Assembly (NCBI GenBank): GCA_035510155.1
Contig: DATKHR010000111.1
Span: 3 to 64,002 of the forward strand
Direction: 5' to 3'
Length of the DNA stretch: 64,000 nt
Origin: Vicinamibacterales bacterium
GTDB taxonomy: Bacteria; Acidobacteriota; Vicinamibacteria; Vicinamibacterales; CAVVIG01
Position numbers and translations under genes: made by a program. The notes under the pieces are model-generated. The model was not told the origin of the DNA, ran no database searches, and was given only the letters and a program-made list of their open reading frames with translations. Positions 4,659 through 60,913 of the stretch are shown piece by piece. Position 1 is the first letter of the stretch. Every line of letters begins with the position of its first letter.

Positions 4659-4887
4659 GGCAACCTCCCTGGTAGAACGGGCGGATTGAAAGAGCATCTT
4701 CACAGACGTGCGGCGGCCTTCGCACAATGACTGATCCGCCATCGCTCGGGCGCCTCGTCACGCACACGGACCTGATGTTGCGGGACCCATGTTATGTCGG
4801 CCTCAGTCTTCTCTCGAAGCTCCTGACGCCTGCGACTGTGACGACGAACAGATAACAGATAGGTAACGAGTAGAGACTACCGTTTCC

Positions 4888-24757: not shown

Positions 24758-24863
24758 CCGCTCAAGGGTCTGGCACGAACGATGGCGGCGCGCTAAAATG
24801 ACGCGTCGGTACTCACGCTCGCTTCACGAAAGTTCACGTCGCTCGCATCAGGAGGAGAGACAC

Positions 24864-27213: not shown

Positions 27214-27687
27214 ATGCCCGATGCGCACCTCAGCTCCGCTGCCCCTGCGTTTCTTACGATTGACACCCGTGCTCCAGCCGCCGTCCGAGAGCTCATCGTC
27301 GAAGCCGACGGCTGTCTGAAAGCCGGCTTTCTGACAGGCGGCACCGTGTGCGCCCAGAAGGCCATTCAGACGCTGCTGCAGCACGAAAGCGCCGAAGGGG
27401 CGAGCTATGAAGCGCGGCTTCACGCGCTCAGCCAGAAATATCCGTCCGTCCCACAGTCGCTCTTCGCGCTGTGCATCCGCCTCGGCGAATCACCGTCGAA
27501 AGAGCACCCGGCGCTCGACGTCGAACGGCTGAAGGTCCTGGTCGTCGCGCTCAAGATCATGTTGTACGAGATCTACGTGCTCGGCCCCGACCGCGTCGAC
27601 CGATTGAAGTACCTGCAGCAGATGGTCGAAGCGTGCGAGGCTGGCGCTCACGGCCAGAAGTCGACGGTCGTCGCCTTCCCGAACTGA
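27214..27687 (+). CDS. Hypothetical protein, DUF4145-like helical domain
   Basis: 157 aa. Helical pattern EADGCLKAGFLTGGTVCAQKAIQTLL....L...L....P..L......IRLGE resembles DUF4145 as I recall it. Overlaps the 3' end of the convergent glycosidase gene by 40 nt. Confidence 0.4.
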   Translation: MPDAHLSSAAPAFLTIDTRAPAAVRELIVEADGCLKAGFLTGGTVCAQKAIQTLLQHESAEGASYEARLHALSQKYPSVPQSLFALCIRLGESPSKEHPALDVERLKVLVVALKIMLYEIYVLGPDRVDRLKYLQQMVEACEAGAHGQKSTVVAFPN

Positions 27688-28685
27688 CCGGACCGGGGTT
27701 TCTGCGGCCCCCCATCCGGGGGAACCGTCGCCCCGGCGTGGGCGTTGATGAACGCCTGATAAAGTGAGAACGCCGGCCGGTTGCTCCAATCCGGGCGTGT
27801 CATCGCGCTGCCGCAGTCGTTTGGCAGCGGCGGATCGTACAAATCATAGAACATCACGCCGGTCCACCAATGGCGCCGACGCTCAAGCGCATCGAGCACC
27901 TGCTGATAGAACAGGGCCTGTTCGATCTCTCCGAACACCGATCGGCAGGGCCTCAGCCCGGTTTCCGAGAGCCAGACGTCCCTGCCGTACGACGACGGTA
28001 GCACGATGTCGTCCATCATCCGGTCGAGCTTCGGACCGTCGCCGTACCAATGCAGAGTGACGATGTCGAACAGAGCGGCGGTTTCGCGCATGGCGGCGCT
28101 GAACCAGCCATTGAGTGTTGCGTGGTGGCTGATCTCGGGACCGAGCACGAGTGCCTTCGGGTTGGCGGCGCGAATCGCCGCGCGGCCGGCCATGGCGAGG
28201 GCTTTGTACACCTCAAGGTCGGCACCTTGGAGATACATATCGAGATTCGGCTCATTCCACACCCCCCAGAGGAAGATGTCGTCCCTATAGCGCGCGACCA
28301 CCGCGTATACGAAGTCGTAATAGTCCTGATACACGAGGGGCGGATAGTTGAACGGTCGACCGCCGTTGGCCCATCGAGGTGTGTAGGCCAGCGATCCGAA
28401 GATCATCCGATGCGTACGCTTGGCTTGGTCGCGCCAGGCATCGGTCACGGTCCAGTCGAAACAGCCTTTGCACGCCGGTTCGATCACGTCCCACCCGTAG
28501 AGCAGCCGGACGACGTTTGCGCCTAGCTCCACCATCTTGTCGGCCATCTGTGGCGTGAACGCACGCGCGTTCACCCCGAAGGAGAAGCCGTACACGCCTT
28601 GCCCCTGCGCGGTGGTTCCCCCACTCCACAGCGCACCGAACGTTGCCAACAGGAGAACCAGGAACGCACGTGGCGCGCGTGGCAT
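27648..28685 (-). CDS. Clan GH-A glycoside hydrolase (GH5/GH39-like, PslG-type candidate exopolysaccharide hydrolase)
   Basis: ORF trimmed to ATG 28685 (signal MPRAPRAFLVLLLATFGALWSGG). Acid/base WGVWNEPN and nucleophile VWLSETG motifs of (beta/alpha)8 clan A glycosidases. Confidence 0.7.
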   Translation of the reverse strand: MPRAPRAFLVLLLATFGALWSGGTTAQGQGVYGFSFGVNARAFTPQMADKMVELGANVVRLLYGWDVIEPACKGCFDWTVTDAWRDQAKRTHRMIFGSLAYTPRWANGGRPFNYPPLVYQDYYDFVYAVVARYRDDIFLWGVWNEPNLDMYLQGADLEVYKALAMAGRAAIRAANPKALVLGPEISHHATLNGWFSAAMRETAALFDIVTLHWYGDGPKLDRMMDDIVLPSSYGRDVWLSETGLRPCRSVFGEIEQALFYQQVLDALERRRHWWTGVMFYDLYDPPLPNDCGSAMTRPDWSNRPAFSLYQAFINAHAGATVPPDGGPQKPRSGQFGKATTVDFWP

Positions 28686-28723
28686 TGCCCTATCATGGAG
28701 CCTTAGGACCGGGTGACATCGAC

Positions 28724-29302
28724 GTGCAACGACACTCAAGAGCCCTGGCGACGCTCGTGTGCCTCGGTTCCACCCTCGCCATCCCGCGATCCGTCCATGC
28801 GCAGACGCCGTCGACGTCATCGACTGAATTCTTCGGCGGCTACTCATATCTGCGCGACCCGGGCGCTTCGGTGCTGACCGCCACGGAAGGCGACGACAGC
28901 TTTCCGCTCGGGTGGGCCGCCGGCGTGGCGCGGCCGGTGCGGCGGGCGATCGCCGTCGTGGGCGACGTCAGCGGTCAGTACAAGACACGCACGACGTTCG
29001 ACAACGACGTCAAGCTGTCGTTCCACGCGTTTATGGCCGGGCCTCGCGCGAGCGCTACGATTGGACGTGTCGCCGAGTTCGCGCAGATCCTCGTCGGCGC
29101 CGTGCACGCCCGAGGATCCGGCTTCGGCGTGACCACATCTCTCACGACTCTCGGCGTCCAACCTGGCGGGGGCATCGACTACCCGCTCGGGTCGCGGTTC
29201 GCGGCGCGGCTCGAGCTCGACTACCGGTGGATCAAGGGCTCCGCAGAGGGACGGGAGGCCGCGAACCAGCTGCGAGCGATCGTGGCGGTCGTCTATCGCT
29301 GA
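28724..29302 (+). CDS. Outer-membrane beta-barrel protein (OmpA-barrel/porin-family)
   Basis: Signal peptide LATLVCLGSTLAIPRSVHAQ. FFGGYSYLRD first strand. Alternating strands through the rest. Start tentatively GTG 28724; the ORF opens at 28643. Confidence 0.6.
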   Translation: MQRHSRALATLVCLGSTLAIPRSVHAQTPSTSSTEFFGGYSYLRDPGASVLTATEGDDSFPLGWAAGVARPVRRAIAVVGDVSGQYKTRTTFDNDVKLSFHAFMAGPRASATIGRVAEFAQILVGAVHARGSGFGVTTSLTTLGVQPGGGIDYPLGSRFAARLELDYRWIKGSAEGREAANQLRAIVAVVYR

Positions 29303-29314
29303 ATTGAACGCTGG

Positions 29315-30469
29315 ATGAAGATCGGCATGGTCGTGACGGGCGGCGTCGATCGCAGCGGCCGCGAGCGTGTCGTCCCAGCCCTGCTGTGGCTGATCGAGGC
29401 GCTGGCGCGGCGCCACGAGCTCCACGTCTTCGTGCTCGACTATTACCCGGAGCCGTGCTCGTACGACCTGCTCGGAGCAACGGTGCACGATCTCGGCCGG
29501 GTACGCGGCGTTCGTGGCTCGAGACGGTTCCGCATCGCGCGCCGCCTGTCGGTGGAGTTGGCCGCCCACGGCCCGTTCGACGTCCTGCACGCATATTGGG
29601 GGGTGCCGGCCGGTGCCGTCACGGCCCGGTTGGCGGGCCGCATCGGCGTTCCAGTGGTCGTGACCTTCGACAGCGGGGAATTCGTGCGCTGCGATGACAT
29701 CGCCTACGGGCTTCAACGGCGCTGGATCGATCGGCTCGCCGTCCGCGCGGCCATTCGCGCCGCCTCGACGCTGACGGTGCCGACGCAATTCATGCGGCGG
29801 CTGGCGGAGCGGCACGGCGCCGATCCGATTGTCATTCCGATTGGCGTCGACGTGTCGCGCTTTCCGAAAGTCGACCGGTCGGATGGGCCGCCGTGGCGAC
29901 TGATTCGGGTCGCGAGCCTCAACCGCGTCAAGGATTACCCGACTCTGCTTCGCGCGCTCGCGCACCTGGTCGCGCGCGTCCCCGATGTGCACCTCGACAT
30001 CGTAGGCGAAGACATCCTCGGCGGGGCGATCCAGTCGATGGCCGATGGCCTCGGACTCCGGGCGTACGTGACGTTTCACGGCGGACAGCCTACCGAGCGC
30101 GTCTCGATGCTGTACGCGCGTGCGCACCTCAATCTCGTCTCCTCCCGTCATGAGTCCGCAAACGTGACGGTCCTCGAAGCGGCCTCTACCGGACTGCCGA
30201 CCGTCGGTACCGCCGTCGGGTATGTCGCCGAGCTCGAGCCTGACGGCGCGGTCGCGGTACCGGTGCAAGAACCAGTGGCCCTCGCGGCCGCGATCGAGCG
30301 GGCGCTGCACGATCGGGAAAGACGCGAGCGTCTCGGCGCCGCGGCGCGCGCCTGGACAATTGAGCACGACGTTGACTGGACGGCGCGGCAGTTCGAGCGG
30401 TTGTACACGGGGCTCGTCAGCGAGCGCCCACGCCAGGCTCCGAGATCGGACAGCCCTCAATCCGCCTGA
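29315..30469 (+). CDS. Glycosyltransferase family 4 (GT-B fold)
   Basis: 384 aa. MKIGMVVTGG... N-terminus. E-x7-E region SSRHESANVTVLEAASTGLPTVGT. Confidence 0.85.
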   Translation: MKIGMVVTGGVDRSGRERVVPALLWLIEALARRHELHVFVLDYYPEPCSYDLLGATVHDLGRVRGVRGSRRFRIARRLSVELAAHGPFDVLHAYWGVPAGAVTARLAGRIGVPVVVTFDSGEFVRCDDIAYGLQRRWIDRLAVRAAIRAASTLTVPTQFMRRLAERHGADPIVIPIGVDVSRFPKVDRSDGPPWRLIRVASLNRVKDYPTLLRALAHLVARVPDVHLDIVGEDILGGAIQSMADGLGLRAYVTFHGGQPTERVSMLYARAHLNLVSSRHESANVTVLEAASTGLPTVGTAVGYVAELEPDGAVAVPVQEPVALAAAIERALHDRERRERLGAAARAWTIEHDVDWTARQFERLYTGLVSERPRQAPRSDSPQSA

Positions 30470-31754
30470 CCAGCCCTGAGTCAGCGATTTTCGTGACACC
30501 GTCGACGATGAGCTGACGAGGCACGACGCCGCGCGCGTGAAAGAGGGCGGCCAACGACGCGTTCCCGACGAGCGGGCGTCCCCCTACGACGACGAGCGAA
30601 ACGTCACAGCGGCGCGCTGCGAGGAGCGCCGCCGCCGCGGCATCGATCGCGTCGTGCAATCCTTCCGGCCGGGAGGGCAGTTGGGGCGACCCTTCCCTCT
30701 CGGCCTCCAGTCCCGGGGCTCCGGTGCCAGGCACTCCTCCGGGGTTCGGGACGATCACGAGATCCGCCGGACCGCCAATGGACAAGCGGCCGGCGTATGG
30801 GAGCCGCAGCAAGCGCGCCGCGTTGGTCGTGACCATGGCCAGCAATTCCCGTGTCGAAGCCACGTGCGTCGCGCTGGCGGCCCTGAGCTCGTCGAGCAGA
30901 TCGTTCGACCCCGTCAGCCGTGAGTCGGACCCGAGCGCCACGGGAGCCGGCGCCTCGTGACCGTCCAACCCGTCGAGCAGCGGGCGCACGGCGGCGGTCC
31001 GGCCGAACAGGAAGGCGTTCGATCCCGGGCACCAGACGAGCCCGGCGCCGGCCTTCACCATGCGACTGAACCCGTTCGCGTCGATCGCGACGCCGTGCAC
31101 GGCGATCGTATTCGGCGCGAGGCATCCGAGGGCCTCGAGCCGAGGCAGCTCGCTCGCCGCCTCGTCGTCGACACCCTCGGCGAGATGGACCACGAACGGC
31201 ACGTCCGCGGACGTGCGCCGCCAGCGCAGGGCCACTTCTCCACCGAGCTCGCCACGCGCGCCGGCCGGGCCGTGCTCGAGCGCGAAAGAATGCGCCCACC
31301 CGTAGCGCCGAACGACGTGAATCGGCATCGTCCGACGGAGCTCGCTGTAATACGGGTTGTGGTGCGCAACGGTTGTCACACCGGCGAGGAGGTTCTTCAG
31401 CGCACCGATGAACAGCCGCTCGGTGAGCGGGTATCCGACGCCTGCGCGGATCGACGAGTCCGAGGCCAGCCGCGGGCGCATGTCTTCCATCCACTCGGTG
31501 GCATTCGCGTACCGATCGCGGAACTTGCGCCGGCCGTAGTGATTGAGCTCGAGGTGGTCGTGCGCGTTGATGAGACCCGGAAGAATCCACGCTCCCCGGA
31601 GATCGATGACTGTGTCGCCCTGCTTCGGCGGGGCGTTTATCGCGAGGATGCGCGACGTGAAGCGGAGCGATCGGATGGCTTCGCTGGCTCCGTCGGGCGC
31701 GGCCACGGCAGGGGCGCCAGCATTCACGAGGTATGCGGCGCGGCCCAGGATCAC
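30417..31754 (-). CDS. Amidohydrolase-superfamily metal-dependent hydrolase
   Basis: ORF 30417..32474 trimmed to GTG 31754, which overlaps the upstream stop (GTGA). PGLINAHDHLELN (H-x-H metal motif) and later VHLAEG and HGV blocks. The N-terminal 240 aa of the raw ORF are Arg/Pro-rich junk overlapping the methyltransferase gene. Confidence 0.75.
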   Translation of the reverse strand: MILGRAAYLVNAGAPAVAAPDGASEAIRSLRFTSRILAINAPPKQGDTVIDLRGAWILPGLINAHDHLELNHYGRRKFRDRYANATEWMEDMRPRLASDSSIRAGVGYPLTERLFIGALKNLLAGVTTVAHHNPYYSELRRTMPIHVVRRYGWAHSFALEHGPAGARGELGGEVALRWRRTSADVPFVVHLAEGVDDEAASELPRLEALGCLAPNTIAVHGVAIDANGFSRMVKAGAGLVWCPGSNAFLFGRTAAVRPLLDGLDGHEAPAPVALGSDSRLTGSNDLLDELRAASATHVASTRELLAMVTTNAARLLRLPYAGRLSIGGPADLVIVPNPGGVPGTGAPGLEAEREGSPQLPSRPEGLHDAIDAAAAALLAARRCDVSLVVVGGRPLVGNASLAALFHARGVVPRQLIVDGVTKIADSGLVRRIEGCPISEPGVGAR

Positions 31755-32524
31755 CGTGGCGAACCTTGCTCCGGCGTCGAAACTCCGGACACTCTTTTTA
31801 CAGCATGAAAGACCGCGACCACCGGTGCCAGGCGGTCCCGCGGCACGGGGCCCGCCGAGGCACCCCAACGTGGCAGCCGCGTTTGGGACCTTGCCCAGGC
31901 GCCCGCCCGGGCGAACCGTGCGAGACGGCCCACCCTGGGGACCTTGACGCGCGGCTCGCGAATCGCCAGCACGCTCAACCCGGCAGCGGACAGAGCCGCG
32001 AGATGTGCCTCGATCGTGTGCGGCGCAAGCTGAACGGCGTGTAGGCCGCCGTCGGCGGTTCTGAATGTGCGCTCCCACCCGTAATCCAGCCACGAGGGGT
32101 GGAAATCGGAGTACACGAGGTGGCCGGCGGGGGTCATGACCCGGGCCATCTCGGTCATCCAGCCGGGGAGATCGCGGATGTCGCCGACCATCAACGACGC
32201 GTTCACCAGGTCGAATGTCGCGCGCCGGAAGGGAAGGCAACAGGCATCCGCTCGAATGCAGCGGCCGTGAGCCACACGCCTGAGCATCGCCATCGACAGG
32301 TCGAGGCCCACGACCGAGCCGGCGCGCGTTTGGAGGATCGGCAGATACCGTCCAGAGCCCGTGCCGACGTCCAAAGCGCGCTTCGCGGATAGATGCGCGA
32401 GGATTCGAACGACGATCGCCTCTTCGGCCGCCATGAGCGGGTTGTGGGCTTCCGCCGCGTACGTGTCGGCCCACAGCTCGTAGGCCAGTCGCGGAGGAAG
32501 TGGCGTCAACGCGGTCCGCATCAT
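31751..32524 (-). CDS. Class I SAM-dependent methyltransferase
   Basis: ORF trimmed to ATG 32524 (MMRTALTPL). Motif I ALDVGTGSGRY. Post-I VGLDLS. Its start overlaps the stop of the upstream radical SAM gene (TGATG). Confidence 0.8.
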   Translation of the reverse strand: MMRTALTPLPPRLAYELWADTYAAEAHNPLMAAEEAIVVRILAHLSAKRALDVGTGSGRYLPILQTRAGSVVGLDLSMAMLRRVAHGRCIRADACCLPFRRATFDLVNASLMVGDIRDLPGWMTEMARVMTPAGHLVYSDFHPSWLDYGWERTFRTADGGLHAVQLAPHTIEAHLAALSAAGLSVLAIREPRVKVPRVGRLARFARAGAWARSQTRLPRWGASAGPVPRDRLAPVVAVFHAVKRVSGVSTPEQGSPR

Positions 32525-34050
32525 CAGAAGCCCGTGGTCTCCGGCCGCTGATAACTCATGAAGTGCTGAAGCGCGTGAAGCTCGTACGGCGCATCGTAGA
32601 AACGGAGCGCGTAGCGCCACGAGCTCGTCGTCCTCAAGACCGCGCGCCGCCAGCGCGTCAGCTTCGGGTCGGTGACGGTGGGATAAAAGGCGTTGACGAC
32701 CCGCTCGAAGTTCCTGACGCGGCGCCGCACCTCGGTGTGCACCCAGGGGAGCCCGTCGCCGCGCCGCTTTGCGAGCTGTTCCCACGCCGGCGACGCCCAC
32801 TCCTCGAGCGAATCAGCAAAGCGGAACCCCTCTCGCCGCGCGCTGTCGAGCAGCACGCCGTCGAGCGGGACCGGCGTGTACGTATAGAGAATGATTTCCA
32901 CCGCCGGATTGACCCGCTTGATCCGGCGGATGAACTCAAACGTGCGCGCGACGTCCCTTTCCGGATCGGGCGGGCAACCGAGCACAAAAGAGAATTCCGG
33001 GACGATGCGGTGCCGCTTCATGCGTGCCGCGAGCTCGAGCGCCAGGCTCGCCGACGCCGTGCCGCCTTTGTTCATCGCCGCAAGCGCTTCGTCGGAGCCG
33101 GATTCGGCGCCGGAAAAGACCATCTTGAGGCCCGAGCGCGCCATCTTCTCCCACGTGGCCTCGCCGTAATGCATCAACGTGTCGACGCGCCCGAGGCCCC
33201 ACCATCGAAGCCGCAGATCGGTGATGCGATCGGCAAACTCCGCCGTCCGCGCTTCCGATACGAAGAAGTCCATGTCGTGCATCTGAACCGCATCGATCCC
33301 AAAAGTTGACGTGAGGTGTCTGAGGACGCGTTCCAGACGTGCGGGAGACTGCGCCAGCCAGCGCCGGTTCGACATCGCCACAACCGCGCAGAAGTTGCAC
33401 GCGAACGGACAGCCAAACGACGAGTTGTGCGCCGTCGTCCGGCGGCCGAGATAGTCCGCGTGCACATACGCCCCCATATCGATGCGGTGATACGGCAGGT
33501 CCGGCAGCTCATCGAGCGGAATCATGGGCCCAATCGGGTTGTGCACGATGCGACAGTCCAGTGCGGATTGCGACCACCCGGATTTCCACGACAGCCCGCC
33601 GATGCGATCGAATGATCCGCCGGATTTCAACGCGGCGATGAGCTCCAAGAGCGGGCGCTCGCCCTGGGACCGGACGGCGAAGTCCACGAATGACGACCTC
33701 AGCACGACGTCTGGATGCTGGGTCGGGAAGTAGCCGCCCCACACGATCGGCAGATCCGGACAGGCCGCTTTGATGCGCCGGCAGACTGTCACGGCTTGCG
33801 AGAGCTGCGGACCGGGCATGACGCTGACGGCCAACAACACGACCCTTTCGGGCGCACCCATCCTCGGAGGCCTCAAGGCGCGCGCCCGGGTCACGCAGTC
33901 GATGATGTCTGCCGCGGGATCGCGCGCAAGGTTCCCGTCGATGAGCGTCCACGGCTCCGCCCCCTCGAGCACCGCGGCCAGCGACATCAACGATAACGGC
34001 AGCGGCTGTTTTCCCGGCGTCGTCGACAACGGGTTGAAGAGAATGATCAT
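32524..34050 (-). CDS. B12-binding-domain radical SAM enzyme (class B)
   Basis: ORF trimmed to ATG 34050 (MIILFNPLS...). N-terminal Rossmann-like cobalamin-binding region. Radical SAM cluster motif GCPFACNFC. ATGA overlap with the upstream methyltransferase stop. Confidence 0.8.
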   Translation of the reverse strand: MIILFNPLSTTPGKQPLPLSLMSLAAVLEGAEPWTLIDGNLARDPAADIIDCVTRARALRPPRMGAPERVVLLAVSVMPGPQLSQAVTVCRRIKAACPDLPIVWGGYFPTQHPDVVLRSSFVDFAVRSQGERPLLELIAALKSGGSFDRIGGLSWKSGWSQSALDCRIVHNPIGPMIPLDELPDLPYHRIDMGAYVHADYLGRRTTAHNSSFGCPFACNFCAVVAMSNRRWLAQSPARLERVLRHLTSTFGIDAVQMHDMDFFVSEARTAEFADRITDLRLRWWGLGRVDTLMHYGEATWEKMARSGLKMVFSGAESGSDEALAAMNKGGTASASLALELAARMKRHRIVPEFSFVLGCPPDPERDVARTFEFIRRIKRVNPAVEIILYTYTPVPLDGVLLDSARREGFRFADSLEEWASPAWEQLAKRRGDGLPWVHTEVRRRVRNFERVVNAFYPTVTDPKLTRWRRAVLRTTSSWRYALRFYDAPYELHALQHFMSYQRPETTGF

Positions 34051-34955: not shown

Positions 34956-35980
34956 GGCGCGCGCCTCCAGCTAGTTTTGAGCGAGCACACGCATCGCCGG
35001 CAGACGGGGTTGCTGGACATGTCGAGCGATTCGCGAAACGCCCGCAGGTTGCGGGTCACGATCGCCTCGAGCGGTGTTTCACGAATGCTGCCGATCGAAT
35101 CATGGAAAAAGCAGGGCCGAACGGCGCCGTTTGCCTCGATGACAACCGACACCCACGGAGCATTGCAGTGCACGAGCGGAAAAACCATCTCGCCACGAAG
35201 CGCGGCGTAGTAGCGAGGGAGGTTCCGCAGCTTGTCGGGGGCCTCGGCGATGAAGCCGGACTCGAAGTCGTCACCGTAGTCCGCGATCGTCTGTTCAACG
35301 ATCCGTGCAAACTCAGCCGTCTCGTCGGCGTTCAGCGTCAACCCGCGGGCGTCCGGAGCGTGATCCCGGCCGAACGCGCGCGACGTGACATCGGCCGGCA
35401 GGAACGAGATGCCGTCGAGGCCCAGGGTCCTGGCGCAGTCGATGAGATTCGGCATCTCGCGGTAATTGGCCTTGTGGAGCGTCGCCCGCGCCGTCACCGG
35501 AAGCGACGGCGCCAGCGCCCGAAGACGCGCCACACCGCGCGCGACCGTGCCGAACGCCGCCACGCCGCGAATCTGCTCGTACAGGTCCTCCGCGGGTGCA
35601 TCGAGCGACACGCACACGCGCGCGAAGTGGTGCGCGACACGATTGGCGAATCGCTCGAGCAGAATGCCGCTCGTGAGCAGGTGGAGCGTCAGCCCGCGCG
35701 CCCGGAACATCGACGCCGCATCGAAGACCTCGGGACGCAGGAGCGGCTCGCCGCCGGAGAACACAACCACTTTCGTTCCCAACGCCGGCAGCGTCCCGGC
35801 AAGATCGTCGATCTCGGCGAGACTGAGATCCCCCTCGCCGGACTGCTTCCACCAGTCGCAGGAGATGCAGCGGCTGTTACACCGGCTCGTGGGATAGAAG
35901 ATGACGAGCGGGAGCACGAACGTCCGGTTGGCCGCCTCTCCCAGCCTGACGAGCACCGCCGTCGGTAATGTGGCCAGCAT
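34943..35980 (-). CDS. Radical SAM enzyme with C-terminal SPASM/twitch-type Cys cluster
   Basis: 345 aa. CNSRCISC (C-x3-C-x2-C) near the N-terminus, about 35857-35881. FSGGEPLL. C-terminal CNAPW...PCFF...NPVCRRCVC auxiliary-cluster pattern. Confidence 0.8.
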   Translation of the reverse strand: MLATLPTAVLVRLGEAANRTFVLPLVIFYPTSRCNSRCISCDWWKQSGEGDLSLAEIDDLAGTLPALGTKVVVFSGGEPLLRPEVFDAASMFRARGLTLHLLTSGILLERFANRVAHHFARVCVSLDAPAEDLYEQIRGVAAFGTVARGVARLRALAPSLPVTARATLHKANYREMPNLIDCARTLGLDGISFLPADVTSRAFGRDHAPDARGLTLNADETAEFARIVEQTIADYGDDFESGFIAEAPDKLRNLPRYYAALRGEMVFPLVHCNAPWVSVVIEANGAVRPCFFHDSIGSIRETPLEAIVTRNLRAFRESLDMSSNPVCRRCVCSLKTSWRRAPWIS

Positions 35981-36017
35981 GCGAGGTTCTTGGTCTTTGG
36001 GCCTTGGTGCTTGGTCC

Positions 36018-38828
36018 TCAGCGAGGCTGCTCGCTCGGCACGGCCGCCTCCTGCGGCGACAGGACGGCGCTCGGCACGACGGCCGGATACGGCGCGGGCA
36101 CTTTCGCCAACCGGTCGACGGTCCGCCGCAGTGACGGCAACGTCACCGCTCGACTGACCAGTTGCATCGCCGCCCGCGCGTGACGCGGCCTCGCCCTCAA
36201 GGGCTGCGCGAGCGCCCGCTTCACCTCCTCGGCCGACCGGCGCGCGCGGAACTCCGCGTGCACGAGCGCGTGCAGGGCGCGGTAGAAGTCGGGCACATAG
36301 GTCGCGTGGTACATCATGGCCAGGTCGTTTGAATCGACCCAGTTCTGTTTCTGCCCGAGCTGCGACTGCACGCGCTGGTAGAAGGGCGTGCCGGGAAGCG
36401 GGTAAGACACCGACACGCCGATGTCATCCGGGCGGCAGACGCGAACCATCTCGAGCGTCTTGTCGATGTCTTCGCGCGTTTCGCCCGGGTAGCCGAACTG
36501 GAGGAAGAAGCCCACGTGGATCCCGGCCTCGTGGAGCAGCCGGGTTGCGCGCTCGATTTGTTCGACACGCGTCCCCTTTTCCATCGCGTCGAGCACCCGC
36601 TGCGACCCGGACTCTGCCCCAATCCAGGCCGTCTGGCACGCCGCGTGTCCGAGCGCGGCCGCGAAGTCCGCCGTCACCTGATCGGCGCGCAGCAGGCACT
36701 TGAAAGGAATGGCGGCGTCGCGATGGTCGACGAACTCCGCAAAGCGCTCGATCCATCCGGGCTTCAACCCAAAGATGTCGTCGGCGATCCAGAGATGGTC
36801 CGGCGCATAAAGCTGCTTCAGCCAGACCATCTCCTCGACGACGTGCTCCGGGGTCCGTGCGGTGTAGCGCTGGCCGTAAATCGGTTTTGCGCACCAGTTG
36901 CAGTGGTACGGACACCCTCGGGTCGTCGCGATGTTCATCGAGAAGTAGCCGTGATGCGAGCGCCAGATGGCTCGATAGCGCGCAACTTCGACGAGGTCCC
37001 AGGCCGGGAGCGGCAAGGAGCCCAGGTCGCGAATGATGTCCCTGGCCCTGGTGCGCACGACGCCCGCCCGGCCCTCGAGATAGGACAGCCCGTCGATCGT
37101 CTCGAGCCCGCCGGATCTGCGCCCGGTAAGCACATCGAGCAGCTCGACCAGCGTGGTTTCCCCCTCGCCCGTTACGACCACGTCGGCTCCGCCCTCGAGG
37201 TAGATCGCCGCGTGGTCGGTCGCATCCGACCCCGACACGATGGTCGGGATGCGGCGCGCTTTCGCGCTGGCAATCATCGCAAGCGCCGCCTGCCGCATGC
37301 GCAGCAGGCACATCTTAGTGAGGTAGTTAAAGTTGTCCTCGTAGATCACCGCGAAGCGTGGCTGGTGGCGATCAAGAGCGGCAGTCCACTCCTGCTCTGA
37401 TTCGGCGAGCATTGCGTCGAACAACGCGACCCCGTAGCCGCGCTCACGAGCACAGGCCGCCGCGTAGAGCGCGCCGAGCGGCGCGTAAGGCTGCTGCGCT
37501 TCCCAAAGCTTCGGATCGAAGCGCAGATAGTAGGCTTGGCCGAACAGGACGTCGACTCCGGCCGTCGCCGGAATCGGCCGTGAGGGTGCGTTGGCCGCGC
37601 GGCCGGCGCCCGGGCTCGCGACTCTCGCCGACCTGACTTCTTTCCGAGGATCGACCTGCGCAGCCGCGGGCACGAGCGCTGGCTTCACTCTCCCAGTCAC
37701 GACGCGCTGGTAGACGTCCAGGCTCTGTCGGGCCGCACGCGCCCACGAAAACTCGTCGGAGCGCGCGCGACCCGCCACCGCGAGCGCGTGGCGGCGACCA
37801 GGATCGCGCGCGAGCCGAACAAGCGCGGCGCCCAGAGCGTCGGTATCGATCCGATCGACCTGCTCGACCGCGAGGCCGCCGACTTCCGCGACTGCCGCGG
37901 CGCGGCCAGTCACCACCGGCGTGCCGCACGCCATGGCTTCGATGACCGGCAGGCCGAAGCCCTCGTACATCGAGGGATAGACGAACATCTCCGCGGCGCT
38001 GTAGAGTGCCGGCAGGTCCTCGAACGGCACATACCCCGTGAACGTGATCGCGTCGCCGACTCGTGATCGGGCGATCACATCTTCAACGCCCCGCGACAGC
38101 CACCCGTACGGACCCACACAGACCAGTCGGTGATTCAGTTCGCCGCGGCGGTGGCGCTCCGCGAACGCTTCGATCAGGACGGGAAGGTTCTTCCGCGGCT
38201 CAATGGTGCCGACGTACAGAATGATCCGGCGATCTCCAGGCCCGTTGCCGTCTACCAAGCCGTACTTGCGCTTCACACGATCGATCGCCGCCTCGTCGGT
38301 GACCCGGCGGAATTGGGACGCCGCGGCTTCATAGACGACGTGCACACGCCGATCGTCCAGCCGATAGTGGCGGACGATGTCGCGTTTCGCGCTTTCCGAG
38401 ACCGTGATTAACGCATCTGCTTTGCGGGCGGCGAGATCCATGAGCGGCCGGTTCAAGAGCACGCGGCGTACAGGGTGATAGCTGGGGAGGAGCCGCAAGC
38501 TCATGTCGTGAATCGTCACGACGGTCGGCGCGCTGGTGACGATTGGCATCATGCCGTTCGTGAAATGGGCGACGTCGGCGCGCATCTCTCTGAGCATCGC
38601 GGGCACGCGCGTCTGCATCCACACGAAGCGCGGAAGGCGGCGCGTGTCCTGGAACACCTGCACGTGCCGGGAAAGCGGTGTCGCGGTCTCTACCGCGCAG
38701 TTCGAGATGACGACGATCTCGTCGTCCGGCGCCGCGGCGTCAGCGAGATGATGGAGCAAATGTTCGGCGTAGTAGCCGACACCCGTCCGATTCGGCCGAA
38801 GCGCCGAGCCATCAAAGGCGATGCGCAT
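36018..38828 (-). CDS. Fusion protein: GT4 glycosyltransferase (N-terminal) plus B12-binding radical SAM domain (C-terminal)
   Basis: Single uninterrupted frame. GT4 part about 38828-37692 (MRIAFDGS..., EPRKN, YPSMYEGFGLPVIEAMACGTPVV). Pro/Ala-rich linker about 37691-37560. B12/radical SAM part about 37559-36021 with GCPYHCNWC at 36891-36914. Confidence 0.8.
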   Translation of the reverse strand: MRIAFDGSALRPNRTGVGYYAEHLLHHLADAAAPDDEIVVISNCAVETATPLSRHVQVFQDTRRLPRFVWMQTRVPAMLREMRADVAHFTNGMMPIVTSAPTVVTIHDMSLRLLPSYHPVRRVLLNRPLMDLAARKADALITVSESAKRDIVRHYRLDDRRVHVVYEAAASQFRRVTDEAAIDRVKRKYGLVDGNGPGDRRIILYVGTIEPRKNLPVLIEAFAERHRRGELNHRLVCVGPYGWLSRGVEDVIARSRVGDAITFTGYVPFEDLPALYSAAEMFVYPSMYEGFGLPVIEAMACGTPVVTGRAAAVAEVGGLAVEQVDRIDTDALGAALVRLARDPGRRHALAVAGRARSDEFSWARAARQSLDVYQRVVTGRVKPALVPAAAQVDPRKEVRSARVASPGAGRAANAPSRPIPATAGVDVLFGQAYYLRFDPKLWEAQQPYAPLGALYAAACARERGYGVALFDAMLAESEQEWTAALDRHQPRFAVIYEDNFNYLTKMCLLRMRQAALAMIASAKARRIPTIVSGSDATDHAAIYLEGGADVVVTGEGETTLVELLDVLTGRRSGGLETIDGLSYLEGRAGVVRTRARDIIRDLGSLPLPAWDLVEVARYRAIWRSHHGYFSMNIATTRGCPYHCNWCAKPIYGQRYTARTPEHVVEEMVWLKQLYAPDHLWIADDIFGLKPGWIERFAEFVDHRDAAIPFKCLLRADQVTADFAAALGHAACQTAWIGAESGSQRVLDAMEKGTRVEQIERATRLLHEAGIHVGFFLQFGYPGETREDIDKTLEMVRVCRPDDIGVSVSYPLPGTPFYQRVQSQLGQKQNWVDSNDLAMMYHATYVPDFYRALHALVHAEFRARRSAEEVKRALAQPLRARPRHARAAMQLVSRAVTLPSLRRTVDRLAKVPAPYPAVVPSAVLSPQEAAVPSEQPR

Positions 38829-40509
38829 CGGCAGCAGGCTCCACAGCTCCCCGCGGCACGGCCGCGGCAAATCCAAGGGTCAACGAAAAGAGGATGTAGG
38901 TGGGGGCGAAGCTGATGAAAGAATCGAACAGGGCGTGCAGAACGATGGCCACGCCCGCGGCTGCCACGGCCACTCGCCTCGGGTCGATGCTCTTGCAACA
39001 CGAGACAAACACCGTGACCGCTTCACGCAGAAACCATACAAATGCGATGGCGGCGACCAGACCACCACTCACGAGCACTTCGAGATACATATTGTTGCTG
39101 TGGGTCCGAGCGTCGGCGTTCTGCAGGCCGGCGTAGGGCCCGTAAAGCAATCGAAAGTTGTCCGGGCCAACGCCCAGAAACGGATGAGCTGCAATCATCC
39201 GCGCTGCGGCGCGCCACAGAACGAGCCGGCCCGGGCGGACCGCGGGTCGAGGTCGATCCGTCGTGATGAACGATTCCCCCGTCGATTCGCCGGTCACCGT
39301 GGCCAGCGAAACAGTTGATGGCAGCGCCCCTTGCTCGGTGCTGAACCAGAGCAACCCCTCTTGCAGCACATCCCATTCGAGCTGGTAGGCGCCCGGGCGA
39401 TGCGGCGCGCGGACGAGCGCATGCACCGTCGCGGTCTCGCCCGGCTCGACAGGACGATCGAAGGCGGTTCGCGCGCCGTTGAAGGCCACGACGCGATCGC
39501 CGTTCTCCGCGAGCCAGTGATACGACACGAGAATCGGCGGATCTTCGGCTGAATCCCACACCAGGCGGCCGGTGTTGCTGACCGCGATGGGAATGCGCCG
39601 CTCGTCGCCTGTCGCCATCGAGAGACTCTTGGGGGCGTCGATACGCGCGCGATACCAAGTGTCTTGACCCTCTGTCGTGAATCGGAGCCACAAGGACTGC
39701 GCGGATCGCGACGAGACGAAGAACCCGACCACGACGACCGACAGCGCGGCCAGCAGCACGGTGCCCGTGTCCAGCCCGCGCCGAGTGGCCCGCGCCGCAC
39801 CCACGAGCAGCACGCTGGCGGCCATCGTGATCAACCCCGCGCGAGTAAACGTCAAAGTGATTGCACCGCCAATTGCGGCAAGCGCGAGAAACCACAAAGC
39901 GGTCCGGAGACGGGACGAAGCGTCGACTGCCGCAAGGAGGAGCCCGAGACCGAAGGCAAAGACGACTTCCAGATACATCGAGGCAATCGTCGGATATTGA
40001 AGGGGCCCGCCCGCACGGACCTGGGCGCCGACGACGCTGACCGACGGCCGAAACGCTTGCAGCCACCTCAGCACGACATCAACCTGAGCCGATTCCAACA
40101 TCGCGAGGGCGGCGACCAGCACGCCTGAAGCGACTGAAAGCGACAGTGCCGTCCGCAGACGCCGCTCGGTCGTCAGACCGTCAACCGTCAGCCGATACAC
40201 GGCTGCGGCCGCCAACAGCCGGCCCGTCATGTGCCACGCGTTCAAATGAGCGGCCGGCGCGACCGCAGCGGCGATGGCCATTGCCGCGAGGAACACCGCT
40301 CCGGCTCTTCCAAGGTGGGCGTGCGGACCCCAACCGACCCCTCGCCTCACCCACGCCAGCGCGGCCGCCCAGGTGGCCAGCGTCAGGAGCAGCACAGCTT
40401 CCAGGTTGCTGATCGCCTGCCACGGCAGTCGAACGAGCGGCTTTGTCATCTCGAACGGAGCAAGCGTCGCCAACAGAAACACCCCGGCTGCGGCAATGAC
40501 GCTTGTCAT
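38812..40509 (-). CDS. O-antigen ligase/polymerase-like (Wzy_C family) membrane protein with an inserted Ig-like soluble domain
   Basis: ORF 38812..40902 trimmed to ATG 40509 (MTSVIAAAGVFLLATL). About 10 TM helices. Soluble insert IAVSNTGRLVWDS...SYHWL...PGETATV...PGAYQLEWDVLQEGLLWF. C-terminal GVGPDNF...HSNNMYLEVL is typical of the O-antigen ligase family. Confidence 0.7.
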   Translation of the reverse strand: MTSVIAAAGVFLLATLAPFEMTKPLVRLPWQAISNLEAVLLLTLATWAAALAWVRRGVGWGPHAHLGRAGAVFLAAMAIAAAVAPAAHLNAWHMTGRLLAAAAVYRLTVDGLTTERRLRTALSLSVASGVLVAALAMLESAQVDVVLRWLQAFRPSVSVVGAQVRAGGPLQYPTIASMYLEVVFAFGLGLLLAAVDASSRLRTALWFLALAAIGGAITLTFTRAGLITMAASVLLVGAARATRRGLDTGTVLLAALSVVVVGFFVSSRSAQSLWLRFTTEGQDTWYRARIDAPKSLSMATGDERRIPIAVSNTGRLVWDSAEDPPILVSYHWLAENGDRVVAFNGARTAFDRPVEPGETATVHALVRAPHRPGAYQLEWDVLQEGLLWFSTEQGALPSTVSLATVTGESTGESFITTDRPRPAVRPGRLVLWRAAARMIAAHPFLGVGPDNFRLLYGPYAGLQNADARTHSNNMYLEVLVSGGLVAAIAFVWFLREAVTVFVSCCKSIDPRRVAVAAAGVAIVLHALFDSFISFAPTYILFSLTLGFAAAVPRGAVEPAADAHRL

Positions 40510-40608
40510 GCAGGCCCCCGAAGCCAGTTCCAAGAACCTTGCCACTCCCCACGGGATGGCTGCTGAGGGGTGGGGCCAAGGCACGCTCGCTGCATACGAG
40601 CGGGGCGG

Positions 40609-41883
40609 ATGCGGTTTGCTTCCCTTTCGAGCCGTGCGCTCCAGACCAGCCGGGGAGTGACGCTTACGGGGGGCGAAAGCCCGTTTCAAAGCGCGAAATT
40701 GCGGCGCTTTTACCTGTTCGCCTACAAAGCGTTCGCCGACGTCACCGCCAGGGGATCGCTGTTCATCGTCACGCTTCTCGCCGCGCGCCGTCTGTCGCCC
40801 TGGGAGTTCGGGGTGTTCGGGCTGGGCACCACGCTCGGCTGGATGCTGGCGGTTGCGACCGATTTCGGCGTGCAGATGCACCTGGCGCGTGCGGTGGCAC
40901 AAGCGCCGGGTGATGCCCGCGCGATGCTCGCCCGATGGTGGCGCGTGAGGTTGATCACCTCAGCGTTGGGGCTGGGCCTCCTCGTAGTGGCGCTGACGGC
41001 GTTTGGCGCACGCCGCACCCTGGCGGTGCCGGTCGTGCTGCTTGCGCTCGTGTATGCGGTGACGAGTCTCGTCGAGCTGATCAATTACTTCTACAGAGGC
41101 CTGTCTCGCAGCGATATCGAGTCGACCCTGACCCTGTGGCAACGCGTCGCAACGCTGGCGCTCGGCATTGGCGCGCTCCTCTGGCGGCCGAGCGTGGCGG
41201 TTCTGGCGGCTGCGCTCCTCGTGCCTCCGCTTGCCGCGCTCACGTGGAGCGCGCGGTTCGCCATGCGCGACGGCCCGGCGAACGCGCCACCGCCAGAGGA
41301 CAGCTTCATTCACGACGTCTTTCCGATCGGGTTGGGCATTGTCCTTTCCGCGTTGTACTTCCGGGTCGACGTGCTGCTCGTCCAGCTCTGGCTCGGGACC
41401 GAGGCCGTGGCTGGCTACAACGCCGTCTTTCGATTGATCGACGCGCTGCGGCTCTTTCCGGCGGCCGCGCTCGCCGTCGTGCTGCCCACCCTGTGTCGCG
41501 CCGATGACCTCCGGCCGCTCGTGCAGGTTTCGGTCGCTGTGACCGCATTCGCGATCATCGCGGCCGCGCTCTTGTGGGCCCTGTCGGACCGTGTGGTGAC
41601 GCTTGCGTTCGGCGAGCACTACCGGACGGCTGTGCCGGCCTTCCGGATCCTCGCGCTGGCATTTCCGCTGCTCTCGCTCAATTTCGCGCTGACGCACCAG
41701 CTCATCGGCTGGAACCGTCAACACTCCTACGCGGTGATCGCAGGAGCGGCGCTCTTCGCGAACCTTGCGCTGAACGCCTGGCTCATTCCGGCGCTGTCGA
41801 TCGAAGGGGCCGCGTGGGCGACGCTAGGGACCGAATTGTGCGTCACGTCCGGCTGTCTCGTGGCGCTGAGGGCGAGGGGATGA
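40609..41883 (+). CDS. Polysaccharide biosynthesis protein / MOP-superfamily flippase (Wzx-like)
   Basis: About 12 TM helices. N-terminal KAFADVTARGSLFIVTLLAARRLSPWEFGVFG is typical of Wzx-type flippases. Start ATG 40609 or GTG 40570. Divergent from the Wzy-like gene. Confidence 0.7.
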   Translation: MRFASLSSRALQTSRGVTLTGGESPFQSAKLRRFYLFAYKAFADVTARGSLFIVTLLAARRLSPWEFGVFGLGTTLGWMLAVATDFGVQMHLARAVAQAPGDARAMLARWWRVRLITSALGLGLLVVALTAFGARRTLAVPVVLLALVYAVTSLVELINYFYRGLSRSDIESTLTLWQRVATLALGIGALLWRPSVAVLAAALLVPPLAALTWSARFAMRDGPANAPPPEDSFIHDVFPIGLGIVLSALYFRVDVLLVQLWLGTEAVAGYNAVFRLIDALRLFPAAALAVVLPTLCRADDLRPLVQVSVAVTAFAIIAAALLWALSDRVVTLAFGEHYRTAVPAFRILALAFPLLSLNFALTHQLIGWNRQHSYAVIAGAALFANLALNAWLIPALSIEGAAWATLGTELCVTSGCLVALRARG

Positions 41884-42794
41884 TGAGCCGGCAAGAGCTC
41901 GCCATCGTGCGCACAGTCACCTACGCGTCGCTCTTCGACTACCCGCTCACGCTCGAACAGCTGCGGCTCACGTTGATCTCGCTCGAGATGTCCCGCGACG
42001 AGATCCTCGCGACCTACGATGCCAGCGCACGTCTGCGATCGATGATCGACTACCGGGACGGCTTCTTCTTCCCGGCGGGACGCGGCGACCTCGTCGGCGA
42101 GCGCCGCCGGCGCGAAGCCCGCAGCCGCGAGTTCCTCGCGCGTCACGCCCGACTCCTCCAGTGGGTGTGCGCGCTGCCCTTCACGCGAACGGTCGCCCTC
42201 TCGGGCAGCATCGCGCATCTCAACCTCGAGGACGGCGGCGATCTCGACCTCTTCATCGTCACACGCGGTCGGCGAGTCTGGATGGTCACCGTCGCGATGA
42301 TTCTGATGACCCGGCTCCTCGGCGCGCGACGGATCGTCTGCGCGAATCTCGTCATGTCTGATACCCATCTGGCGATCGAGGAGCAGGATCTGTTCACGGC
42401 AAACCAGGTGCTCCACCTCAAGCCTCTCATCGGGCCGGAGGTCCTCGAAGGCTTCGTTGCCGCCAATCCGTTCGTCGCGAGGTTCTATCCCAACCGGGCG
42501 CGTCGAGCTGAGACCGCTTTCGCAATTCACCGGGGGCGAGCGCTCAGATGGCTGAAGGCTGCGGCTGAGTGGCTGCTGATCGTCCCATCGCCGGCGCTCG
42601 AGGCGCTCTGCCGCCATGCCTATGCGTGGCATCTGAAGCGGCGTTCCGTGTCCTGGCGATCGCCCGAGCAAGTGCGCCTGCAGCCTGACTACCTCAAGCT
42701 TCACACTCACAGCCACCGTCAATCGGTCCTCGAGCAGTTCGACCGGCGGGTCGACGAAGCGCTCGGACGAGGTGAGCGCGCGGCAATCGCGTAG
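41880..42794 (+). CDS. Hypothetical protein with Pol-beta-type nucleotidyltransferase-like motif
   Basis: ATG 41880 overlaps the flippase stop (ATGA). GSIAHLNLEDGGDLDLFIV fits the G-S-x(9-13)-D-x-D minimal nucleotidyltransferase signature. The rest is unrecognised. Confidence 0.45.
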   Translation: MMSRQELAIVRTVTYASLFDYPLTLEQLRLTLISLEMSRDEILATYDASARLRSMIDYRDGFFFPAGRGDLVGERRRREARSREFLARHARLLQWVCALPFTRTVALSGSIAHLNLEDGGDLDLFIVTRGRRVWMVTVAMILMTRLLGARRIVCANLVMSDTHLAIEEQDLFTANQVLHLKPLIGPEVLEGFVAANPFVARFYPNRARRAETAFAIHRGRALRWLKAAAEWLLIVPSPALEALCRHAYAWHLKRRSVSWRSPEQVRLQPDYLKLHTHSHRQSVLEQFDRRVDEALGRGERAAIA

Positions 42795-51506: not shown

Positions 51507-51793
51507 GATTTGGCAGGGGGAGCAAACCCATGGCCAAGCTTAGCTGCTGCGAGATATCTTCAATAAAATCAAGAGCTTAGTGGTGGGCTCGGCGACCAGT
51601 TCGATCAGGCGGCATGTGAAGATCTGGGACAAGCGTTCCCAATGAAATGGCTGATGTACGACTATAAGTCATTATAGAAGTGACACTTACGCCATCATGT
51701 TCCATTTCTGACCACGACGGACGCAATTGGAACACTCTGTCATATCGAGTCCTACTGAAGAGCTGTGTTGTGTGATGCGATAATGCGCAACCA

Positions 51794-54864: not shown

Positions 54865-54887
54865 AACCCGACCGGACTCCGCGGGCG

Positions 54888-55820: not shown

Positions 55821-55862
55821 CGTGCACCTCCGCCGGACAGAATGCTGCAATATGATTGCCGC

Positions 55863-56813: not shown

Positions 56814-56892
56814 GCTCGGCTCCCGGCAGCCACGCCGAGATTCCACGGTGTATCATCGATTCCGGGTAGGTTCGCCAGGAGGAGTTGCCCGT

Positions 56893-58464: not shown

Positions 58465-58502
58465 CCGCGTCGAGGCGCCAAGTCAGCCGTGTGAGCGCGG
58501 CT

Positions 58503-60896: not shown

Positions 60897-60913
60897 CACG
60901 CCCTCCCAACCAC

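Follow-up and report, generated by a model that had tools for sequence, protein, structure and literature searches.

A conserved Vicinamibacterales gene cluster that may assemble a surface glycan and tailor it with radical SAM enzymes

Loci for Wzx/Wzy-dependent glycans, such as those for colanic acid and the Salmonella O-antigen, encode family 4 glycosyltransferases (GT4), a flippase of the multidrug/oligosaccharidyl-lipid/polysaccharide (MOP) family with a Polysacc_synt domain, a Wzy_C protein, and tailoring methyltransferases (MTs) that use S-adenosylmethionine (SAM). The same components are encoded by a gene cluster of a Vicinamibacterales bacterium, which we analyzed in a window of 64,000 nt of contig DATKHR010000111.1 (the window is the whole stretch of DNA studied; coordinates are window positions, and the G+C content is about 65%). 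The likeness extends to homologous loci of Terriglobia, which carry an initiating enzyme of the Bac_transf type. In contrast to the described loci, no phosphoglycosyltransferase, Wzc/Wza, or nucleoside diphosphate (NDP)-sugar genes were present among the open reading frames (ORFs) scanned in the window. The system also has components that lie outside the canonical Wzx/Wzy pathway, namely two to four cobalamin-type radical SAM enzymes (rSAMs), an rSAM with a SPASM domain, a deaminase-type amidohydrolase, and a GT4 partner with a nucleotidyltransferase (NTase) fold. We regard the cluster as an uncharacterized variant of surface-glycan assembly with radical SAM tailoring. No description of it was found in the literature, in agreement with a first-pass annotation of this DNA, which had not recognized the gene set and order as those of a described locus.

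Other described pathways share part of this logic. In the hopanoid pathway (HpnI, HpnK, and HpnJ), a glycosyltransferase acts first, and a hydrolase and a B12-domain rSAM then work on the attached sugar. This parallel had been drawn in the first-pass annotation and it stands as an analogy, but membership does not follow from it: the HpnJ model (TIGR03471) gave 115.7 bits with the fusion protein described below against a cut-off of 577.6, and the HpnH model (TIGR03470) gave 42.7 against 225. The glycosyltransferase of the cluster is a GT4 and its hydrolase a deaminase-type Amidohydro_1 protein, whereas HpnI and HpnK belong to other families, and the ORFs scanned in the window included no hopanoid gene. 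The class B (cobalamin) rSAMs of aminoglycoside biosynthesis likewise act on unactivated carbons of glycosidically linked sugars (C-methylation by GenK and GenD1, C3' deoxygenation by AprD4); however, they serve soluble pseudo-oligosaccharide antibiotics encoded in actinomycete clusters, with neither a glycosyltransferase fusion nor machinery of the Wzx/Wzy type. In blasticidin S synthesis (BlsD/BlsE), a glycosyltransferase is followed by an rSAM of the SPASM/twitch type that acts on the sugar, and no solved structure matches the SPASM protein of the cluster better than BlsE; the BlsE match, however, is confined to the rSAM core (residues 30-186), the score with TIGR04466 was 48.9 against a cut-off of 400, and the pathway context is entirely different. 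Exopolysaccharide loci of the Psl/Pel type share a secreted hydrolase of glycoside hydrolase clan A (GH-A), PslG, encoded beside glycosyltransferases; they differ in that the GH39 model (PF01229) reached 18.1 bits here, under its cut-off of 26, and that the hydrolase gene adjoins the cluster in a minority of related loci.

We propose that the locus, which is typical of Acidobacteriota and occurs in a Vicinamibacteria form and a Terriglobia form, serves to build and tailor a cell-surface glycan linked to a lipid, most likely polyprenyl phosphate, and we give this reading a probability of roughly 0.55. The cluster itself is real, conserved, and tightly packed, and it is inherited as a unit in Vicinamibacteria. 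Its genes are listed below with the domains or signals that identify them; the last figure on each line is the number of loci with an ortholog among the 50 related loci that had enough flanking DNA.

27648..28688, minus strand: secreted clan GH-A glycoside hydrolase (Glyco_hydro_cc, Cellulase); 7/50
28643..29302, plus strand: small outer membrane (OM) beta-barrel-like protein (sub-threshold OMP_b-brl and signal peptide); 7/50
29315..30469, plus strand: GT4b, second GT4 glycosyltransferase (Glycos_transf_1, Glyco_transf_4); 45/50
30417..31754, minus strand: deaminase-type amidohydrolase, COG0402-like, GTG start (Amidohydro_1); 46/50
31751..32527, minus strand: MTb, class-I SAM methyltransferase (Methyltransf_11); 45/50
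32524..34050, minus strand: B12b, stand-alone B12-binding rSAM (B12-binding, Radical_SAM); 46/50
34047..34955, minus strand: MTa, class-I SAM methyltransferase (Methyltransf_23/25); 50/50
34943..35980, minus strand: rSAM with a SPASM-type C-terminal Fe-S domain (Radical_SAM, SPASM); 49/50
36018..38828, minus strand: GT4::B12-binding rSAM fusion (GT4, B12-binding, Radical_SAM); GT4 part 50/50, rSAM part 50/50
38812..40509, minus strand: Wzy_C-family membrane protein, O-antigen polymerase/ligase-like (Wzy_C); 48/50
40510..40569: divergent intergenic region of 60 nt between the Wzy-like and Wzx-like genes (read from the sequence)
40570..41883, plus strand: Wzx-like MOP-family flippase (Polysacc_synt); 46/50
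41880..42794, plus strand: NTase-fold (Pol-beta-like) protein of 304 aa (motif and predicted model); 50/50

The minus-strand block of seven genes running from 40509 to 30417 was examined by ORF listing, translation, and direct reading of the junctions, and the gene order and all six junctions of the first-pass annotation were reproduced exactly. The Wzy-like gene (stop at 38812) and the fusion gene (ATG at 38828) overlap by 17 nt, and this overlap is also kept in L001 and L002, the two Vicinamibacterales relatives with precomputed Pfam annotation (L numbers denote fetched related loci and P numbers listed homologous proteins). The fusion stop (36018) is separated from the ATG of the SPASM gene (35980) by a 37 nt gap, and the SPASM stop (34943) in turn overlaps the GTG of MTa (34955) by 13 nt. 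ATGA, TGATG, and GTGA form the MTa/B12b, B12b/MTb, and MTb/amidohydrolase junctions, respectively, and genes overlap at five of the six operon junctions. The predicted divergent pair, a Wzx-like flippase gene with a coupled nucleotidyltransferase-like gene, was also confirmed: it lies beyond the 60 nt spacer, which is presumed to be a bidirectional promoter region, and its two genes are coupled by ATGA on the plus strand (41880-41883). A scan for sigma-70 promoters and intrinsic terminators gave no more sites than shuffled sequence, none of them at the operon ends, and the sigma-70 consensus had no match in the spacer; co-transcription of the seven genes is therefore suggested by the junctions only. 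At the other end of the block, the convergent 3' ends of the amidohydrolase gene (minus) and GT4b (plus) overlap by 53 nt (30417-30469), which leaves no room for a terminator between the two transcription units.

Orthologs were identified with 19 window proteins as tblastn queries against 82 fetched loci. The 11-gene core, with the fusion counted as GT4 and rSAM, was present in at least 45 of the 50 loci, and dozens of independent assemblies showed this gene set in this order, with protein identities of 45-80%. The identities of the individual core genes covaried across loci (Spearman 0.67-0.91), indicating that the block is inherited as a unit; the flanking housekeeping genes (esterase, GSDH, cytochrome c, and DUF4159) were syntenic only in the closest relatives. 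In a species-level scan with one genome per species, a relative of the fusion protein was detected in 269 genomes, almost all labeled Vicinamibacterales or Acidobacteriota, and the loci of 80 of these 269 genome matches were seen. The fusion protein had 996 scored homologs, the best 120 of which were all full-length GT4, B12, and rSAM proteins with 65-75% identity (one with 99%); the named sources among these 120 were metagenome-assembled genomes (MAGs) of Vicinamibacterales or Acidobacteriia/Terriglobia. The block delineated in the first-pass annotation is thus co-conserved, mainly in Vicinamibacterales.

The number and arrangement of the rSAM genes varied. The GT4::rSAM fusion was found in 29 of the 73 loci scored and was split in 41. 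In a second group of at least 15 loci, GT4 and rSAM are adjacent but separate genes, the GT4 stop lying within about 15 nt of the rSAM match in another frame. In about 20 loci, designated type B, a methyltransferase gene stands between GT4 and rSAM; these clusters have four B12-binding rSAM genes, a SPASM gene, and a third GT4. Many type A loci contain a third class-I methyltransferase between MTa and B12b, and some loci an additional B12-rSAM after the fusion gene. B12-rSAM genes per locus numbered two in 28 loci, four in 14, three in 4, and one in 4. The description of the locus as built around three rSAMs, one of them fused to GT4, therefore holds for this contig but not for the system, both features being particular to this lineage. 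In L001 (15468-16944) and L026 (15454-16930), the B12b ortholog gave two tblastn pieces in different frames, with genes called at 173 and 199 aa, the mark of either a pseudogene or an assembly frameshift. Five further loci (L034, L035, L036, L064, and L072) have the same gene order and 59-66% identity to the Vicinamibacterales cluster, and their MAGs are labeled Betaproteobacteria, Bifidobacterium breve, Bifidobacteriaceae, Acidimicrobiia, and cyanobacterium. Mis-binned contigs or wrong labels, rather than horizontal transfer, most likely account for these cases.

The fusion protein is about 936 aa long, with a variable linker of about 45 aa, and matched GT4 (99 bits), B12-binding (35.4), and Radical_SAM (67) in Pfam. 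Its EX7E residues (E290/E298) and C640/C644/C647 are invariant in 24 homologs. B12b matched B12-binding with 35.4 bits (cut-off 32.1) and Radical_SAM with 36.8, and at least 95% of 49 sequences retain C215/C219/C222. Both proteins therefore have the N-terminal B12-binding domain and CxxxCxxC core of class B rSAMs, and the CxxxCxxC motif is intact in all three rSAMs of the locus. The solved structures nearest to the B12-rSAM part of the fusion were 9ccb, AprD4 (6fd2), and CysS, the first of which is the methylase QCMT/MgmA (PMC12931638, PMC11796369). AprD4 was the best match of B12b in the Protein Data Bank (PDB), and for each of the two B12-rSAMs it ranked first or second among solved structures. 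The solved structures nearest to these enzymes include methylases (QCMT, CysS, and TokK) as well as non-methylases (AprD4 and OxsB), and we know of no sequence motif that diagnoses methylase over other class B chemistry.

The SPASM protein matched Radical_SAM with 66.5 bits and SPASM (PF13186) with 39.1 (cut-off 21.5). In addition to the conserved C34/C38/C41, it has only five C-terminal cysteines (C272, C290, C327, C330, and C332) of the seven in a full SPASM auxiliary motif, which is compatible with one or two auxiliary clusters. The best PDB matches of its family profile were BlsE (1e-17) and MoaA (4e-14). MTb matched Methyltransf_11 with 57.8 bits, and MTa matched Methyltransf_23/25 with 60 bits.

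No protein of the locus reached the curated cut-off of any NCBIfam family. The best NCBIfam match of the fusion protein was BchE (TIGR02026), with 127.7 bits against a cut-off of 481.35, ahead of HpnJ; B12b scored 90.6 against 750 for ApyD, 83.8 for BchE, and 73.6 for HpnJ; the SPASM protein scored 71 against 515 for NirJ; MTb was nearest to the DVU_1556 family (53.9 against 155) and MTa to the corrinoid-protein-associated methyltransferase CpaM (72.3 against 180). Identities as hopanoid, BchE, ribosomally synthesized and post-translationally modified peptide (RiPP; ApyD), ladderane, or P-methylase enzymes, which were the best NCBIfam matches, were rejected at scores four to eight times under the curated cut-offs; the anaerobic BchE cyclase falls with these for both the fusion protein and B12b. 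The rSAMs accordingly lie outside every characterized NCBIfam family, which agrees with the first-pass annotation. Many fusion homologs (P0002, P0007, P0008, and others) bear the JGI label 'anaerobic magnesium-protoporphyrin IX monomethyl ester cyclase', which is an over-annotation given the BchE score. A role in conflict systems, raised by a 'GT4-conflict' Pfam match, was also dropped; the PADLOC defense models returned only generic matches to the rSAM core (viperin 48.7 bits, PDC-M51A 22 bits).

The amidohydrolase matched Amidohydro_1 with 68.1 bits. At least 95% of 44 amidohydrolases (the window protein and 43 orthologs) retain H58/H60 (HxH), H183/E186 (HxxE), H213, and D270. The PDB matches of the family profile were 8-oxoguanine deaminase, the Pseudomonas proteins 4dyk and 4gbd, atrazine chlorohydrolase, the deaminases of methylthioadenosine (MTA) and S-adenosylhomocysteine (SAH) (4f0r, TM0936), guanine deaminase, and aminofutalosine deaminase; the top profile matches were all deaminases or dechlorinases of the COG0402-type group. 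Proteins of the NagA type were absent among the best 25 of 40 NCBIfam matches and among the best 60 PDB matches of the family profile. The named deaminase equivalogs were missed as well (8-oxoguanine deaminase 62.4 against 532; 5'-deoxyadenosine deaminase 29.1 against 522). Taken together, the deaminase catalytic set and the profile matches indicate hydrolytic deamination at an sp2 carbon rather than deacylation, and by these sequence characters the enzyme is predicted to be a COG0402-type deaminase and not a sugar deacetylase. The earlier idea that the product is deacylated or hydrolyzed is therefore unlikely. Two roles would fit. The enzyme may edit an intermediate by releasing ammonia from a group that resembles an amidine or a nucleobase, or it may clear 5'-deoxyadenosine and SAH, which three to five rSAMs together with the methyltransferases would release. 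5'-Deoxyadenosine is a toxic by-product of rSAMs, and both it and SAH can be removed by a known deaminase route (PMC6079011, PMC10978960).

The NTase-like protein had no Pfam match and no PDB sequence match, and the 120 homologs listed were all 'hypothetical' and without a Pfam domain. G108-S109 and D120-x-D122 are invariant in 40 sequences and take the form of the Pol-beta motif G[SG]-x(9-13)-D-x-[DE]. An AlphaFold2 model built from the alignment of these 40 sequences had a pLDDT of 83 (the single-sequence model, with 40, was unusable). Foldseek matches to this model were weak (best E 0.047, low TM-scores; MNT probability 0.97), and they were consistently NTases: MNT antitoxins, GlnE, ANT(4'), AadA, and DrrA. 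A profile search of 1.84 billion representatives gave 5,340 members (representative clusters, E <= 1e-3). Among the best 150 of these (P0241-P0390), about 35 were 660-770 aa long with the NTase-like domain at the C-terminus, and all eight long members tested were GT4::NTase-like fusions, one with an additional methyltransferase (GT4::NT::MT). A Terriglobia GT4::NTase-like fusion used as query retrieved 5,083 proteins at E <= 1e-20. The family thus looks like an undescribed GT4-partner domain without a Pfam model.

Glycan-type membrane proteins accompany these enzymes. The Wzy-like protein matched Wzy_C with 55 bits (cut-off 31.7) and has about 11 transmembrane segments by hydropathy, with a soluble loop of about 210 aa that carries an Ig-like domain (N_BRCA1_IG, sub-threshold here at 18.6 bits and 26.8 in the L080 homolog). 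The Wzx-like protein matched Polysacc_synt (PF01943) with 62.6 bits (cut-off 28.2) and, with about 10 hydrophobic segments, is identified as an MOP/PST-family flippase. GT4b matched Glycos_transf_1 (88.5 bits) and Glyco_transf_4 (58.6), and its EX7E motif was read from the translation, so that both GT4b and the fusion protein have the GT-B fold domains and EX7E of GT4 enzymes. These assignments support the first-pass description of a glycan-assembly-type locus.

The Terriglobia homologs bear on the lipid carrier. L080, L083, and L084 encode a Wzy_C protein with an Ig-like domain, an ortholog of the fusion rSAM immediately upstream of a GT4::NTase-like fusion (12994-15066 in L080), several B12-rSAMs, a B12b ortholog among them, and methyltransferases; orthologs of the amidohydrolase and the SPASM rSAM were found in L084. 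Identities were 40% for B12b (35-44%), 38% for the amidohydrolase, 35% for the SPASM protein, 31% for the Wzy-like protein, 37% for the rSAM domain of the fusion, 38% for GT4, and 33% for the NTase-like domain. In all three loci, a Bac_transf phosphoglycosyltransferase gene (223 bits in L080) lies beside the GT4::NTase-like gene and is followed by another GT4. L080 also encodes GT87, a GT-C family that depends on polyprenyl-phosphate-mannose. Sulfotransferase genes in L083 (6563-7366) and L084 (1-190) suggest a sulfated glycan in that lineage. Bac_transf together with extra GT4s and sulfotransferases or GT87 is the classic make-up of a polyprenyl-phosphate-linked glycan locus, and the Bac_transf genes in cis are the strongest evidence for this type of linkage.

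We infer the substrate, the order of steps, the chemistry, and the product from the observed gene content, domains, catalytic motifs, coupling, and co-inheritance. The GT4 enzymes and their NTase-fold partner would add sugars at the cytoplasmic face, and the B12-rSAM fused or adjacent to the first GT4 would modify the sugar just installed by that GT4. C-methylation of an unactivated carbon is the most likely chemistry, with deoxygenation of the AprD4 kind or rearrangement as possible outcomes; the nearest solved rSAM relatives include sugar-modifying enzymes (AprD4 and BlsE) as well as C-methylases (QCMT/MgmA and CysS). One to three further B12-rSAMs, one SPASM-type rSAM, and two or three class-I SAM methyltransferases may complete the tailoring. 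The Wzx-like MOP protein would then flip the product, and the Wzy_C protein with its periplasmic Ig-like domain would polymerize it or ligate it to an acceptor; in some lineages, the secreted GH-A hydrolase and the small OM barrel may process or export it. Rosetta-stone fusions link several of these parts (GT4::B12-rSAM in 29 loci, GT4::NTase-like in Terriglobia, and one GT4::NT::MT), and the fusions and adjacencies of NTase-like, GT4, and B12-rSAM domains, in part with a methyltransferase, indicate consecutive action on one substrate. A more specific proposal is that B12-rSAMs beside or fused to a Leloir GT4 tailor lipid-linked sugars right after transfer, with a previously undescribed NTase-fold family as obligate GT4 partner and a dedicated deaminase that clears 5'-deoxyadenosine and SAH or edits a nucleobase-like substituent, which would be the first rSAM stage in a pathway of the Wzx/Wzy type. 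We put this forward tentatively, at somewhat less than even odds.

Several results weigh against a polyprenyl-linked, radical-tailored surface glycan. No initiating phosphoglycosyltransferase of the Bac_transf or WecA type, no Wza/Wzc, Wzz, or Poly_export protein, and no NDP-sugar biosynthesis gene was present among the ORFs scanned in the window, L001, and L002. Wzy_C, a domain common to WaaL, PglL, and Wzy, does not distinguish polymerases from ligases of the WaaL or PglL type. No sequence feature separates methylases from other class B chemistries, and every NCBIfam equivalog cut-off was missed by a wide margin. The GH-A and OM barrel genes adjoin the cluster in only the 7 loci counted above. 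The relatives seen were all MAGs or single-cell genomes, some with frameshifts, and no cultured strain was linked to them. The phosphoglycosyltransferase, Wza/Wzc, and NDP-sugar genes may be encoded elsewhere in the genome, or the Vicinamibacteria form may start differently. The statement in the first-pass annotation that GT4, Wzx, and Wzy together define Wzx/Wzy-dependent assembly was therefore an overreach; that pathway type gains support only from the Terriglobia homologs, because of their Bac_transf genes in cis.

The missing initiating enzyme, which was also not found among the flanking ORFs scanned in L065, would suit a glycolipid or lipoglycan assembled directly on a membrane lipid, as phosphatidylinositol mannosides and lipomannan are. 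PimA/PimB-like GT4s would act on a phospholipid or diacylglycerol; after flipping, the product would be extended or transferred outside, and the rSAMs would modify the head group or acyl chains. The GT4 domain of the fusion has low-level matches to PimA, PimB', MshA, and GlcNAc-PG synthase, and GT87 in L080 also fits. However, Bac_transf lies beside GT4::NTase-like in three of three Terriglobia loci, the Wzy_C and Wzx families are typical of glycans linked to polyprenyl diphosphate, and the locus is without lipid-synthesis genes, so that we consider a membrane-lipid anchor unlikely. A little less probable still is transfer of a short tailored oligosaccharide to protein or lipid A-core, with the Wzy_C protein as an O-oligosaccharyltransferase of the PglL/PilO type or a ligase of the WaaL type. 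The breadth of Wzy_C, the Ig-like domain in the periplasmic loop, the presence of only two or three GT4s per locus, and the lack of a chain-length regulator or outer membrane polysaccharide export (OPX) protein are in line with such a transfer, whereas the GH-A hydrolase of the closest relatives fits a polymer better.

A small-molecule cluster of the nucleoside or aminoglycoside kind appears improbable. It would combine a glycosyltransferase, BlsE/AprD4/GenK-like rSAMs, methyltransferases, and a deaminase with an MOP exporter and self-resistance by an NTase resembling aminoglycoside nucleotidyltransferases (ANT). The nearest solved rSAM relatives do come from apramycin (AprD4) and blasticidin (BlsE) synthesis, the amidohydrolase is of the nucleobase-deaminase type, and the NTase-fold matches include ANT enzymes. 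However, the similarity to BlsE and AprD4 is confined to the generic rSAM core, GT4::NTase-like fusions occur in thousands of proteins, which is unexpected for a resistance gene, and the cluster has been passed on vertically as a unit and occupies a syntenic chromosomal site throughout an order; Wzy_C, the Bac_transf of the homologs, GH-A, and the OM barrel are also misfits. In a RiPP cluster, a ribosomal peptide would be processed by B12-rSAM C-methylases and a SPASM maturase before being glycosylated and exported. This reading draws on the frequent role of SPASM enzymes as peptide maturases and on ApyD as the best NCBIfam match of B12b, but was rejected as highly improbable, because the overlaps and the 37 and 60 nt gaps are too tight to hold a precursor gene, the loci showed no conserved small ORF, no protease or RRE domain is present, and glycan-type membrane machinery dominates the locus.

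For the proposed lipid-linked surface glycan, the secreted GH-A hydrolase and the small OM barrel are lineage-specific accessories. The hydrolase matched Glyco_hydro_cc with 33.9 bits (cut-off 21) and Cellulase with 24.9 (cut-off 23.5), and NEP and SETG motifs and a signal peptide were read from its sequence. Of the earlier assignment as a PslG-type clan GH-A enzyme, the clan stands, but the PslG type does not, given the GH39 score. Its start is uncertain: the longest ORF extends to 28847, and a Met at about 28688 precedes the signal peptide. The barrel gene lies 12 nt upstream of GT4b and has orthologs beside GT4b in L001, L015, L024, and L050; its protein has a signal-peptide-like N-terminus, and the start is probably later than 28643. 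Its OMP_b-brl score of 19 bits is under the cut-off of 28.7, the one exception among the domain calls of the first-pass annotation, the others being above the Pfam gathering score. Between the esterase and GH-A genes, 27214-27687 (plus) encodes a 157 aa protein with one hydrophobic segment and no Pfam match, which has 87-93% identity in the same four loci (L001, L015, L024, and L050), above that of any cluster gene. Further out, the flanks (1051-4757 and 49428-61400) hold many genes for secreted or periplasmic peptidases (M20, beta-lactamase-fold, S8, M28+PDZ, S10, and S9+PD40), which are consistent with a proteolytic lifestyle and unrelated to the cluster. Three sizeable plus-strand ORFs (23102-24757, 24510-25580, and 55404-56813) have coding-type G+C at third codon positions and no Pfam match.

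Vicinamibacteria and Terriglobia rank among the most abundant bacteria of soils, and to our knowledge almost nothing is known about the chemistry of their envelopes. Under the tailoring right after transfer that we put forward tentatively above, C-methylated (branched-chain), deoxygenated, or rearranged sugars would occur in the envelope of a very abundant soil lineage. If the proposed glycan assembly is correct, hundreds of species would be predicted to make an unusual, possibly C-methylated, surface glycan. As a natural fusion, GT4::B12-rSAM would provide a tractable enzyme for radical chemistry on lipid-linked or polymer sugars. Database names such as BchE cyclase on the fusion homologs would be corrected, and glycan biosynthesis could become the assigned role of the NTase-fold family (5,340 representative clusters).

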